A stretch of 64,000 nt of DNA from Desulfobulbaceae bacterium UBA5121 (GTDB taxonomy: Bacteria > Desulfobacterota > Desulfobulbia > Desulfobulbales > UBA5123): assembly GCA_002414225.1 (NCBI GenBank), contig DHYV01000042.1:20878-84877 (forward strand), written 5' to 3'. Positions within the stretch are counted from its first letter, which is position 1, and each line of letters begins with the position of its first letter. This document shows, piece after piece, positions 51,910-58,404 of the stretch. The position numbers and the translations under genes were made by a program. The notes below the pieces were generated by a model, which saw nothing but the letters and a program-made list of their open reading frames with translations, made no database searches and was not told the origin of the DNA.

Positions 51910-54900
51910 TTATATGGTCGCATTTTCTTGTCCAAATGTATTGCTTGTTGTCGGTGAAACAAAATTATCTCTGTTTTCCTCCAGTGTTGCTGCACTATTA
52001 TAATCACCATCCGCCCTAAACCTGTTAATTTTCTGGTTAAATAACTGATATGCTTGCGTATAGGCATCTCCGGCGTTGGCCCCATCAATCAGTGCCTTGT
52101 CGATCTCTATGTCGCAATCACAAAATTCGATCTGACTTGCTATAATAAGTTTAAACGGTAACTTATAGCCGAAAAAAGCCTTTGCCCCTTTACTTACAAG
52201 ATCTGCGCCTATTCCGGTAATGTACCCACAATTGCAAGCAAAGAAATGAAAGATCTTACTACCAGCTTGCCGATTGGTGACTTTCTCATTGATGACCTCG
52301 GGCAACGGATTGTCCTTTGGTGCCCACCCTGTCAGATAGGATGGTCGGCCATGCCCCGAAGCCGTACAATATGAGAGACTGGATTCATTAAGTTCCTTGC
52401 TAACCTTGTCTGGTACGTCATCAGCTCCAATTAATGACGATTGAAGATTCTTGTATTTGCTTGCCGTGACATAAGGATACAAACGTATCTTTCTTCTTTT
52501 GTAAATGATTTGTGTTGCCTGGTCATCATCTACGTTTGCATCTATGAGAAGAATACTCCCTGTTCCGGTAATATATCCTCCTGTCCCTTGGGACTGCTGG
52601 ATGGCAACTGACTTCTCGTTCTCCACAGAAAGCATATAGTCTTTGGCAACCATTTCTTCTACTGCAAGTCCGGCCACCACGACTGCTCCGACAGCCAACA
52701 CCGTACCACCAGATGCAACAACGGCAACAACCGCAACCGTCGTAACTGCTGCTACAGCAACCGCTGCCCAGAAATGACCCCATCCACTCCATGAAAGCAT
52801 AACCATATTTCTAGACATTGAGTATGAAGTGACGAGATCATGATGCGAAGGTGGTCTGGAAAAGAGAGGCTCGAGCGTGTTGCGGGTGGTTTCAACAACA
52901 TCGGCAATCGGGGCCGCCTGCAACTGGAAGTGGTATGATCTGTTGCTGTAAGCCGTTATCGTAATCTTCCAATCACCCGGTTCGGGATTTACCACCGCCA
53001 GAATGCCGAGGCTGTTACCTTTCATGAGAACATAAAGAGTATCGGTATTGGTGTCTTTTTGAAACTTTTTACCGGAAGGATCTTCAATAGTTAACGTTAC
53101 ATCATCAGGTACTAAAAAATTAAAGGAGTTATCGACAATACAGGCATAAAGCGACGTTGTTCCTTCCTTAATCGTAACAACTTGTCTTCTCGTTACCTCC
53201 TTCGGGTCAACAAGATCATTCTGCGGATTTTCTATCTGACAGAAGACATAGTTGTTTGCACCATAAGCCCACACACAATGAAAGACAGGAGCAAAGCTGA
53301 TATTTCCATTTGCCTCAAGCCTGTTTCTGTATTGGGAATCATCATCCAGATCATAATTAAGTGACCAAAAACCAGCTAAATGGTCTTCTTGTCCGCTCAA
53401 TCTTCCAAACATAACTAAAGCCAACTGATCCGCACTCAATGCACAGCTCCAAAATCCCACATTCATGACGATTCCGCAAAATTGATTATACGGCTCCTGC
53501 TGTTGTTGAGTGGCTCCGATCATCATCGGCAGTGAGTTGTTAATATTCAACGGAGTATTTTTATTGGAACGAGGTGTAACGCTGACGGCTTTCCCATCCA
53601 CATAAATACTCAACTTCCCAGAAGCCCTGACTCCCGCAACAGCATGATGTTCTCCATCAAAGATATCTGTCGGAACAGAGTTAACTTCATAGAAACCGAA
53701 TCCGTCATCGGTCGCAAATTTAATGACACCGTTATCCTTGATTACAAGTAGAAAACCGCCGTTCCCGGGGCCGCCTTCGGTTCCCTTTCTTGATATCACC
53801 GTCCCAGGTTTACTCGTTTGTACCATAGCCGACACGGTAAAATCACCAAGACCGACATCGTAGGCAGATATAGGTGGTGCCGTCAGATTACCTTGTGTCA
53901 ATAGTTCAACACCAAATGCCGGATGGCTTGTGGCATTGACTATCCATGTCAAATCATCACATAAGGCAGTATACTGATCAATTACCCTTCCCTGCTGCAT
54001 AACCAGCCATTGGGTCTTTTCGGTTGTGATTTGATGAAATTGTTTTTTTGCGGGAATAGTGGTGTAAAACAACAATGTTCCATCAGCATTCACCTTGTAG
54101 AGTTCCAGGTACATTGATAAATGGTTTATAAGATTAAAAGTTACTGTTTTGGATGACTCAAGCGATGGCAGGAAACCATCACCAAGCTCAACAAGGTTCC
54201 ACTCAGTAAGACCCGGATAGGCATAATACCCGGAAAAAACTGTTCGTCCATCTTTGGCTAGAAAGTATTGCCCCTGATACGCGTCATAGGTAAAGGAACC
54301 GCCGGGTTTTATCTGCGTAATTTGAACCATATTTCCCTGGCTGTCGACTCCATAGATATCAACATCACTCGATCTCTTGTTCGATATACTGATAGTGTGC
54401 GTTTGGTTTGCTTGCCCAGTAAATTCCACCGGTCCATCTTGCGGTCTGGGATTTATCGAACCGCTGAAACTGCTTATCTCATAGCTACGGCTGAAAGTAA
54501 TATTCCCTTTTGCTCTGGTTGTTTTAATATCCTGCCAGTCAAAATTAAGGTTATTGGACTGCGGGTTATAGTCAAAATCGATTCTTTGCCCTGCAATGTC
54601 GAGGGTGTCATTATTATGAACGATAAGCGGAGAAAAATAACTGCCCCACCAATGTGTTTCCGTATTGTAATACATAGCCCAGAACGAGAGCGGCATTCCT
54701 TGGTGCGTTCCGGTGTAGTTTTCCTCTTTCCCTGTGGATTGCAGGGTTATGGTTCCGGTAAACAGCGCATTTACATCATTAATTGAAAAAACGATATGGC
54801 CCTTGAGGATATCCGTTCCAATTTGACACCAGTCAAATGTCAAAGTATTGCTATATGCATCGTATTGGTATTCGATGCGGTCTCCCGCTATGGTAACTTC

Positions 54901-55293
54901 TCCCGTAGGGTGAACAACGAGTGGAGAAAGAGCAGAACCAAGAGAACCGGCCTGTGTGACATAATTTCCCATCCAGCAGGATAACGGTTTTCCTTGTATT
55001 GTGCCTGTAAAACTGACGGGACCATCTTGAGGTCGGGGATTAATCGACCCTGAGAAGCTATTGTCTCCGCTATTAAAAGTAATTGTGCCTTTTGCTATCG
55101 TTCCGGAAATGACCTGCCAGTCGAAGGTCATTTGGTTTTTGGCGGCATCGAATGTGTAGATAATTTCTATTCCTGCTATTGTTACACGTCCGTTCGGATA
55201 GACAATAAGCGGTGAAAAATAACCGTTCCACCAGTGCGTTTCTGTATTATATAATCCTGCGAATTTACATATGGGTAATATTGTTAAAGACAT
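51910..55293 (-). CDS. 1127-aa multidomain protein of unknown function; see evidence for the seven-part domain layout
   Basis: Domain layout: (1) Three roughly 95-aa repeats, each with THWW..YFSPLIV...FDW...FSGSINPRPQDGPV.FTG. (2) Two beta domains (residues roughly 298-455). (3) A LamG-like region (GDFTVSAMV...GFLLVIKDNGVIKFATDD...HHAVAGV...LSIYVDG). (4) A beta-sandwich (roughly 700-795). (5) A 39-residue hydrophobic stretch (840-878). (6) A C-terminal CTASGHG (His981) ... FHFFACNCG (Cys1020) dyad with caspase-like spacing. No signal peptide. Confidence 0.75.
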   Translation of the reverse strand: MSLTILPICKFAGLYNTETHWWNGYFSPLIVYPNGRVTIAGIEIIYTFDAAKNQMTFDWQVISGTIAKGTITFNSGDNSFSGSINPRPQDGPVSFTGTIQGKPLSCWMGNYVTQAGSLGSALSPLVVHPTGEVTIAGDRIEYQYDAYSNTLTFDWCQIGTDILKGHIVFSINDVNALFTGTITLQSTGKEENYTGTHQGMPLSFWAMYYNTETHWWGSYFSPLIVHNNDTLDIAGQRIDFDYNPQSNNLNFDWQDIKTTRAKGNITFSRSYEISSFSGSINPRPQDGPVEFTGQANQTHTISISNKRSSDVDIYGVDSQGNMVQITQIKPGGSFTYDAYQGQYFLAKDGRTVFSGYYAYPGLTEWNLVELGDGFLPSLESSKTVTFNLINHLSMYLELYKVNADGTLLFYTTIPAKKQFHQITTEKTQWLVMQQGRVIDQYTALCDDLTWIVNATSHPAFGVELLTQGNLTAPPISAYDVGLGDFTVSAMVQTSKPGTVISRKGTEGGPGNGGFLLVIKDNGVIKFATDDGFGFYEVNSVPTDIFDGEHHAVAGVRASGKLSIYVDGKAVSVTPRSNKNTPLNINNSLPMMIGATQQQQEPYNQFCGIVMNVGFWSCALSADQLALVMFGRLSGQEDHLAGFWSLNYDLDDDSQYRNRLEANGNISFAPVFHCVWAYGANNYVFCQIENPQNDLVDPKEVTRRQVVTIKEGTTSLYACIVDNSFNFLVPDDVTLTIEDPSGKKFQKDTNTDTLYVLMKGNSLGILAVVNPEPGDWKITITAYSNRSYHFQLQAAPIADVVETTRNTLEPLFSRPPSHHDLVTSYSMSRNMVMLSWSGWGHFWAAVAVAAVTTVAVVAVVASGGTVLAVGAVVVAGLAVEEMVAKDYMLSVENEKSVAIQQSQGTGGYITGTGSILLIDANVDDDQATQIIYKRRKIRLYPYVTASKYKNLQSSLIGADDVPDKVSKELNESSLSYCTASGHGRPSYLTGWAPKDNPLPEVINEKVTNRQAGSKIFHFFACNCGYITGIGADLVSKGAKAFFGYKLPFKLIIASQIEFCDCDIEIDKALIDGANAGDAYTQAYQLFNQKINRFRADGDYNSAATLEENRDNFVSPTTSNTFGQENATI

Positions 55294-57390: not shown

Positions 57391-58404
57391 TTAAACCGTA
57401 AGCTTACTAATTGCTTCTCCATATTCAAATACAAAAAGGCGCCATTCAAAACGTTTGTTTTCCTTTTTTTCAGATGTTATTTTGATTCCTTCAAGCAGTG
57501 TACCTGTCATCGGCACTAATATCCCCAATACATCTGTCAAAACAGATGTCACCAGGTTTTTTGCTATTTTCTCAGGGGACAATGCCGCTTTCTCTATTGA
57601 TATCCTCAAGTCTTCCACAATCTCTTTCTCAATAATTTTTTTGACATTGGCTTCTGGAATACTTGACAATTCGTCAATCTTAGAACGAAATTTATCTAAA
57701 CTCCAATGGCAGCGAAGTTTTTCCATAGCAGAGAACAAATAGGTAAGGTCAATAACACCATCAGGTTTACGAAATGCATCTAACGTGAGAATAGGTAAGC
57801 TATGAGCTTCAAGCACACTATCTACTGTTTTTAAATGTTCATTCGCGGATGGTTCAACAGTGCCATTAGCAACAAACTTCAGGACATCAATTTCATTCGG
57901 CTTACAAACCAGCCTAGCCTCAAGGTTTTGCGATAAACATACAGCCGTATCCATCGAAGCCAAGACAGGGATGAAGTCTGGGTGGTCTGCAGCGAATGGT
58001 CCGGCAATTTTATACAGTGAAGAGATTAATTGATCTGAATTCTCTTGTGGGTAGACTTTTCTTAATAAATTCTCACCTCGCTCATAATTGTCACCGGAAG
58101 ATTTAAGTATTTCTTCTGGAGCCATAAATCTCACTCCTAGACATGACCTGAGGTCGCCCAATAGCATATCCGATAATCCTTGTTCCTGGTTAGCCGGGAC
58201 ATATATGTCGTCAAAGAGAAGTGAGTATGGCAATAGATCGTTAATCATAGTAAGAATAGCTCGGTCTGCGTCTTCTTGGAGTACTTTATGAAAAGCCTCA
58301 AGAATCTCCGCAGAACCTCCGATTTGTCCACCTCTTGCAAACCAGCCAGAAATGCCTCCCCAATAATGGCTTCCAATTATTGCCTTTTCTTTATATTGGT
58401 TCAT
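57391..58404 (-). CDS. Hypothetical 337-aa protein
   Basis: ORF with GAGGGGG upstream of ATG 58404. First gene of the low-GC cargo. No family recognised. Confidence 0.55.
   Translation of the reverse strand: MNQYKEKAIIGSHYWGGISGWFARGGQIGGSAEILEAFHKVLQEDADRAILTMINDLLPYSLLFDDIYVPANQEQGLSDMLLGDLRSCLGVRFMAPEEILKSSGDNYERGENLLRKVYPQENSDQLISSLYKIAGPFAADHPDFIPVLASMDTAVCLSQNLEARLVCKPNEIDVLKFVANGTVEPSANEHLKTVDSVLEAHSLPILTLDAFRKPDGVIDLTYLFSAMEKLRCHWSLDKFRSKIDELSSIPEANVKKIIEKEIVEDLRISIEKAALSPEKIAKNLVTSVLTDVLGILVPMTGTLLEGIKITSEKKENKRFEWRLFVFEYGEAISKLTV

Follow-up and report, generated by a model that had tools for sequence, protein, structure and literature searches.

We analysed a 64,000-nt stretch of DNA from Desulfobulbaceae bacterium UBA5121 (contig DHYV01000042.1 of assembly GCA_002414225.1, positions 20,878 to 84,877 of the forward strand), hereafter the window, whose own coordinates are used throughout. 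The subject is a low-GC block of five genes, A to E, which an earlier note made from the sequence alone had singled out as a candidate undescribed system. The five minus-strand genes described there were all recovered as open reading frames (ORFs) with unchanged coordinates: A (57391-58404, 337 amino acids (aa)), B (56251-57183, 310 aa), C (55815-56219, 134 aa from a TTG start or 116 aa from the ATG at 56165), D (55293-55646, 117 aa) and E (51910-55293, 1127 aa). The block lies within an island of 12.3 kb that is inserted at the tmRNA gene (62606-62959). Left and right boundaries are marked by a 35-nt direct repeat, of which the left copy (50276-50310, an attachment-site copy of the tmRNA 3' end) is 97% identical to the right copy (62600-62634, inside the tmRNA 3' end itself). 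The GC content of the block is 0.412, compared with 0.534 for the rest of the island and 0.632 for the host, in which windows of the size of the block never fall below 0.588 (standard deviation 0.023). Together with the repeat and an integrase, this contrast bears out the view of a separately acquired, unannotated low-GC payload, poorer in GC than backbone and host, inside a mobile tmRNA island. The source is a metagenome-assembled genome; since the same gene block recurs in contigs assembled from two further sequencing runs, an assembly chimera is unlikely. The block is mosaic cargo with one conserved unit inside it, the translationally coupled D-E pair.

The five proteins and the flanking genes were scanned with Pfam, NCBIfam, PADLOC and PHROG profiles. 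Within A-E, only Laminin_G_3 and weak lectin or beta-sandwich matches were obtained, all of them in E; the scans gave nothing significant for A-D and for the C terminus of E, in agreement with the statement of the earlier note that no family could be named apart from sub-domains of the giant protein. In the PADLOC check that it had proposed, none of A-E significantly matched a system component, the best hit in PADLOC-DB 2.0 (C against Avs2, E-value 0.019) being noise.

Protein E consists, in order, of three repeats of ~97 aa, two small beta domains, a LamG domain, a beta-sandwich, a hydrophobic hairpin and, at the C terminus, a caspase-like protease domain, as judged from the ORF, Pfam matches and orthologue alignment. 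The tandem repeats (residues 1-295; 54409-55293, minus strand, as for all parts of E) show a weak OAA-lectin sugar-binding match (Pfam SBD, 6.5e-5) and appear in the DNA as internal repeats 582 nt apart. The LamG, or concanavalin A-like, domain occupies residues 481-624 (53422-53853; Pfam Laminin_G_3, 4e-14), and a galactose-binding-like beta-sandwich occupies residues 731-784 (52942-53103; Pfam GBD_Hemicentin, 3e-5). Among the 99 protease-family members scanned, the former domain is found in 25 and the latter type of sandwich in 7. Translation and hydropathy place a hydrophobic stretch of 41-47 residues, rich in Ala, Val and Gly, at residues 838-884 (52642-52782), a putative two-helix membrane hairpin, and the protease domain follows at residues 913-1127 (51913-52557).

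Full-length homologues of E are scarce, numbering four among 5.8 billion proteins with E itself counted; the other three are 74%, 54% and 50% identical to it. Residues 466-1127 align end to end with relatives of ~680 aa, such as one from Variovorax paradoxus (38% identity over 670 residues), and E is therefore the family core with ~465 extra residues at the N terminus. A fast-evolving sensor part was considered and ruled out, sequence identity being even along E.

Parts of the binding array are also found outside this family. The ~97-aa repeat is 36% identical to a segment of P0005, a fungal protein (Exophiala xenobiotica, 1382 aa) that has a PLD-type domain, and by this sequence likeness it looks like a small domain common to bacteria and fungi. 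On the Burkholderia arboris megaplasmid NZ_CP101526.1 (locus L033, 6224-7942), two tandem copies of the LamG-plus-middle part (about residues 460-818 of E) are encoded at 32-36% identity, with neither a protease domain nor an annotation. Because these copies lack the protease, the sensing module also exists alone.

The structure of the protease domain was predicted with AlphaFold from a 77-sequence alignment (predicted local distance difference test (pLDDT) 94.5; predicted template modelling score 0.89) and compared by Foldseek. The best matches were SAVED-CHAT (2e-5) and gingipain R (4.5e-4), both with a probability of 1.00, followed by caspase-3 and caspase-7, separase and Craspase TPR-CHAT. 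Clan CD is defined by an alpha/beta fold with a central parallel beta-sheet and helices, in which the catalytic His is on the loop after strand 3 and the catalytic Cys on the loop after strand 4 (PMC4357240). The model runs strand-helix-strand-helix-strand, small strands, strand, helix, strand, helices, and it has the central sheet flanked by helices. His981 (motif GHG, codon 52351-52353) comes immediately after strand 3 (model residues 81-87), and Cys1020 (motif HxFxAC, codon 52234-52236) comes immediately after strand 4 (model residues 122-126), so that both catalytic positions of the clan are occupied. Across alignments of 77-99 relatives, these two positions are invariant or conserved to at least 90%, and Arg934, His1016 and Asp1065 are conserved as well. 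By its modelled fold and catalytic pair, the C terminus of E is a clan CD protease domain and a predicted peptidase; what the earlier note had called a protease-like ending is in the model a caspase-like fold with its His/Cys pair intact.

Judged by profile comparison, no named family within clan CD fits this domain, and the protease family is absent from Pfam. No Pfam protease family matched E even at an E-value of ≤ 1, nor any of 99 relatives at ≤ 1e-3, and the clan CD profiles of Pfam (Peptidase_C14, CHAT, C11, C13, C25 and others) did not admit it. Searches of PDB sequences with the protease-domain profile and with E itself found nothing useful. The extent of the family was assessed by searching 1.84 billion representative proteins with a profile of the last ~250 residues of E (E-value ≤ 0.001), which recovered 424 clusters at 50% identity from many phyla. 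Among 149 relatives listed, 95 are stand-alone proteases of ~210 aa and 47 carry N-terminal extensions. The usual extended form, of ~680 aa, comprises LamG, a beta-sandwich, a hydrophobic stretch of 40-55 residues and the protease domain, and hydropathy places a stretch of that length just ahead of the protease in most N-extended relatives. A pattern scan of metagenomes gave three protease loci, at least one of which (L028) duplicates another locus in the set.

Gene D, which encodes a small alpha/beta protein, ends on the start codon of E (TAATG) and has a GGAG ribosome-binding site upstream. In all four E-type loci, D lies directly upstream of E with the identical 1-nt stop/start overlap. A wider search with a 12-sequence protease alignment provided 18 loci for comparison. 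A D-like gene immediately precedes the protease-family gene in 11 of them, and one more has a D-protease fusion; these loci come from Betaproteobacteria, Alphaproteobacteria, Actinomycetota, Acidobacteriota and Sericytochromatia, with stand-alone proteases among them. D is fused N-terminally to the protease in P0019, P0044, P0063 and P0149, and in P0019 the two are joined straight to each other with no membrane segment between them. A profile of D recovered 19 D-like proteins, none of which is named or in Pfam, and the reverse look-up from these proteins led to a protease gene immediately downstream with a 4-nt overlap. Adjacency in both directions and fusion in some lineages identify D plus protease as a two-gene module. 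An all-against-all comparison of neighbours across the 18 loci revealed no third gene common to the family.

The D model (pLDDT 92.2) shows a small alpha/beta domain that ends in a long helix. Foldseek found no match for this fold in PDB (best E-value 3.9) or among viral proteins (best E-value 0.65), so that the structure check proposed in the earlier note, informative for the C terminus of E, left D without a structural match. No signal peptide was found in D. A gasdermin-like or toxin-like D was rejected on the grounds that nothing matches and that relatives carry D as an N-terminal fusion. No gasdermin gene stands beside the protease gene, and neither D nor the other neighbours match gasdermins in Pfam or PADLOC.

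Several D-like proteins depart from the form seen in the window. Those with the motif 'LPAGFHPDGRP' (P0169, P0174-P0179, P0181 and P0184) end in long Lys/Arg-rich tails that the window D lacks, and wherever the neighbour is visible (L021, L023, L029, L031) they pair with proteases that have no hairpin; the tail might replace a membrane or nucleic-acid attachment. In L030 (an ERZ23491266 scaffold, GC 0.38), a D-like fragment with the motif 'MPCGF' lies beside a gene for a 671-aa zf-TRAF/MATH protein. Long proteins related to this branch, such as P0070, contain Gln/Ser-rich repeats, and the host of the branch may be unusual, perhaps a eukaryote or an organism associated with one. In L001, the locus of the 50% orthologue of E, the gene directly upstream of D (7872-9608) encodes a 578-aa protein with a signal peptide and no Pfam or PADLOC match, whose C-terminal segment resembles, by eye, a Hint/intein-type domain of polymorphic toxins.

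Both ends of E, the binding array and the protease, would be cytoplasmic with the hairpin between them. We infer this placement because none of 40 long relatives has a signal-peptide-like N terminus, because the hydrophobic stretch is of hairpin length and because the soluble P0019 joins the signal-less D to the protease.

In their would-be mode of action, the closest known systems are CHAT and caspase-like immune proteases. The CHAT proteases of clan CD gave the best structural match (SAVED-CHAT, PDB 8tl0; Craspase TPR-CHAT, PDB 7y84). Like E, they join a caspase-like core and a His/Cys pair to an N-terminal sensing region. In SAVED-CHAT and TPR-CHAT immunity, assembly reportedly activates the protease, and downstream proteins are then cleaved. 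E differs from them in having no Pfam protease match, no SAVED and no TPR, and no CRISPR or cyclase genes lie nearby; conversely, the lectin-type domains, the membrane hairpin and partner D belong to the E module and not to CHAT systems. With caspases, metacaspases and orthocaspases (PF00656), E shares the fold and the catalytic pair. The caspase-like protease of type IV Thoeris requires its catalytic Cys for defence and cuts EF-Tu during infection (bioRxiv 10.1101/2024.10.24.620036). However, PF00656 does not match E, a TIR partner is missing, and E is, by prediction, membrane-tethered with binding domains of its own. Separase, in complex with securin, offers a further parallel, being a large protein with a C-terminal clan CD protease (PDB 5mz6, 5u1t) that is controlled by a small partner; since no similarity of D to securin or a solved structure was detected, this likeness is an analogy only, in which D would take the part of the inhibitor.

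We give about an even chance to a mechanism in which E is a membrane-tethered sensor-protease with D as its partner. The array of lectin-type and beta-sandwich domains would bind a ligand on the cytoplasmic face of the membrane, and recognition would activate the protease, most likely by clustering, as in caspases and CHAT filaments. Until then, D would restrain the protease or adapt it to its target, acting as a regulator, whether inhibitor or adaptor. The active protease would then cut D or cellular proteins, and in the island this would probably lead to growth arrest or death, from which the element profits or by which an invader is stopped. That the purpose of D-E is defence or conflict is a separate proposition, to which we give somewhat less than an even chance. 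The full reading is more tentative still: D-E might be an undescribed immune or conflict module in which the membrane-tethered, lectin-type array senses a component of the invader and switches on the caspase-like protease under the control of D. On that reading it is equally tentative to regard the stand-alone, fused and giant architectures as variants of one system.

A conflict role is favoured by the position of D-E on a mobile island together with a toxin-antitoxin pair and gene A, a gene associated with defence islands. In addition, the 50% orthologue of E adjoins a PM2-like prophage with a distant Rep-like homologue, and the family is rare, occurs patchily and varies in its architecture. 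Other observations weigh against such a role. D and E have no PADLOC match, and no relatives of the protease domain were found in viral contigs (IMG/VR). In 14 species-representative genomes, the GC content of the module equals that of its surroundings; the relatives stand mainly beside housekeeping genes (EF-G, PurA, CTP synthase, CarB, Lon, FtsH), and defence-type matches near them are merely sporadic. The sensor part of E is no more divergent than the protease part. A recognisable D is lacking from 6 of the 18 loci, so D is not obligatory. Finally, one subfamily has an exported protein of ~430 aa upstream of D, which hints at an envelope-related and not an antiviral role.

This last feature belongs to a high-GC subfamily that includes two loci from Acidobacteriota. 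The gene for the ~430-aa protein is located directly upstream of the D-like gene in five loci (L021 7632-9113, L023 8255-9550, L029 999-2288, L031 680-1981 and L032 15-827). Its product has a signal peptide and no Pfam match, and in L021 and L023 it ends in a tyrosine. Where the contig extends that far, a stand-alone 206-aa protease follows the D-like gene, and the flanks of L021 and L023 have no other gene family in common.

The strongest alternative is that the D-E family performs ordinary regulated membrane proteolysis, in envelope, developmental or quality-control signalling, and that the island merely holds a diverged copy with no part in conflict. Most of the adverse points just listed speak for it, namely native GC among housekeeping genes, the conserved exported protein in five loci of one subfamily, the empty PADLOC and viral searches and divergence that is uniform along E. 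However, both giant E-type copies with long sequence context lie on or beside mobile elements, and the family is patchy and so rare that its E-type is limited to the four proteins mentioned above. The architectures are highly variable (stand-alone, fused, split), a pattern typical of conflict genes, and no housekeeping partner is conserved across the loci. We consider ordinary proteolysis a possible but doubtful account of the family.

A second alternative makes E an exported or surface lectin-protease, like a gingipain with its adhesin domains, whose array would be extracellular and serve adhesion or nutrient acquisition. Gingipains are secreted, and in them the protease precedes the adhesin domains. 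Gingipain R (MEROPS C25, PDB 1cvr) is the second-best structural match and likewise combines a clan CD protease with beta-sandwich or adhesin-type domains; the N-terminal domains of E are of carbohydrate-binding types, and the Acidobacteria-like subfamily has an exported protein in its cluster. E itself, however, has no signal peptide and shows the reverse domain order. The lack of signal-peptide-like N termini among the 40 long family members, the direct fusion of signal-less D to the protease in soluble P0019, and a hydrophobic stretch whose length suffices for a hairpin with both termini on one face of the membrane, make this explanation improbable.

The proposal of the earlier note that A-E form one five-gene sensor/effector system deserves hardly any credence: although the five genes share one strand and a low GC and stay together in the two other assemblies of the same element, the three orthologues of E keep D and lack A, B and C in 3 of 3 loci, relatives of A never occur near B-E, and B and C have no relatives anywhere searched. 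In the closest of these orthologue loci (L002), the gene upstream of D lies on the opposite strand. GC also varies by gene within the block, from 0.35 (B) to 0.44 (E), and gaps of 207 nt (A-B), 31-85 nt (B-C) and 168 nt (C-D) separate the upstream genes, while D and E overlap. A GC-rich hairpin between C and D (55715-55790, minus strand; fold energy -24.4 kcal/mol, z = -1.96, which is weak) is a possible transcription-unit boundary. A single five-gene operon or system was accordingly rejected, co-occurrence being limited to D and E, and A, B and C are passengers unrelated to D-E. On gene neighbourhood, then, the expectation held for the D-E pair and failed for the five genes together, and the relatives of the protease turned out to lie mostly among housekeeping genes. 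The suggested combination of sensor and effector stays reasonable by virtue of the binding-domain array of E, whereas B and C cannot be counted as parts of an E system because they have no detectable relatives and are absent from the E-orthologue loci.

Literature searches returned no description of a membrane protein combining LamG with a caspase-like domain, and the label 'undescribed' used in the earlier note is upheld. What is new here is an unnamed clan CD protease family, a partner whose fold has no match and a putatively membrane-tethered lectin-type sensor; the kind, a caspase-like sensor-effector, is known. Caspase-like proteases have lately been recognised as executioners of bacterial immunity in type III CRISPR cascades, type IV Thoeris and gasdermin systems. 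To these the module adds a protease family with no match in the profile libraries scanned, a conserved partner and predicted cytoplasmic lectin-type sensing tethered to the membrane. Should the module prove to act in defence, the parallel with animal innate immunity would reach further and a new protease-partner pair would be at hand; otherwise, it would still be an uncharacterised membrane protease of wide distribution. The module is testable, because the culturable Variovorax paradoxus NBRC 15149 has a homologous pair (NZ_CP192473.1, within 186250-206975).

Gene A represents a rare, separate family, of which the homologue search found eleven relatives; none of their loci carries B-E. The relatives adjoin Drt4 (1e-184), a type III methyltransferase with a ResIII helicase, and a HEPN/MNT pair, and another neighbourhood contains a 62-aa gene and an 822-aa LmuB-like ATPase (4e-22). 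Because of these neighbours (Drt4, type III restriction-modification, HEPN/MNT, LmuB-like ATPase), A is taken as a separate, defence-island-associated gene. In L009 (7710-11508), and also in L010 and L011, the relative of A is followed by the 62-aa gene and then by the 822-aa LmuB-like ATPase of SMC type, an order that we take to resemble the Lamassu layout of effector, small protein and ATPase. A might be an unrecognised Lamassu-type effector, though no LmuA model matches it. As to Lamassu membership, A has no PADLOC match and the window contains no LmuB-like ATPase.

Gene B encodes a membrane protein with a soluble C-terminal part and is an ORFan, forming a singleton cluster. It is certainly a gene, because it is a 310-codon ORF in DNA of 35% GC and hydropathy detects three hydrophobic segments within residues 25-124. 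No relatives of B were found in the fetched loci, viral contigs, metagenome contigs, plasmids or PDB, and A likewise had none in the viral contigs and plasmids searched. C, a helical ORFan, is probably a gene; it has no relatives in the fetched loci, cluster look-ups or PDB. Sequence searches of PDB gave nothing useful for A, B or C.

The flanks of the block, a toxin-antitoxin module plus a P-loop NTPase on one side and a replication/integration module on the other, are as the earlier note described them. On the left, the island carries an antitoxin-like gene (50396-50716, minus strand; named after the source annotation), a RelE/ParE toxin gene (50743-51087, minus strand; NCBIfam TIGR02683, 1e-23) and, adjoining E, a gene for a P-loop protein of the adenylate-kinase family (51249-51845, minus strand; NCBIfam NF005994, 2e-20). 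The backbone on the right (59215-62585, plus strand; Pfam and PHROG matches) encodes an RHH-type protein, a 433-aa Rep-like protein (59807-61108, plus strand) and a tyrosine integrase. The tmRNA was the sole RNA family recovered in an Rfam scan, and scans for promoters and terminators gave counts no better than chance. Like other tmRNA-integrated genomic islands, this one has an integrase beside the tmRNA 3' end, two copies of a 35-nt attachment site and a foreign GC content; this likeness concerns the carrier and not the cargo, and it is uninformative on the function of D-E.

Some observations bear on the origin of the island. The 90%-identity cluster of the P-loop protein has 82 members, including proteins of the methanotrophs Methylocaldum marinum and Methylomicrobium agile, and part of the cargo may therefore derive recently from a lineage other than the high-GC host. 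The Rep-like protein has a 23%-identical homologue in L001 (15652-16956), encoded a few genes away from PM2-type (corticovirus) capsid genes, P2_N/P2_C. Capsid genes are lacking from the island in the window, which may therefore be a relative of PM2-like prophages without a capsid, or a satellite of them. Just beyond the left boundary, a 109-aa ORF (49567-49896, minus strand) has a lipoprotein-like N terminus and an Ala/Pro-rich tail for which 24-nt tandem repeats code. Two more dips in GC against the host value of 0.63, at 17001-19000 and 9001-11000 (0.47-0.51 and 0.55, respectively), may be further acquired segments.

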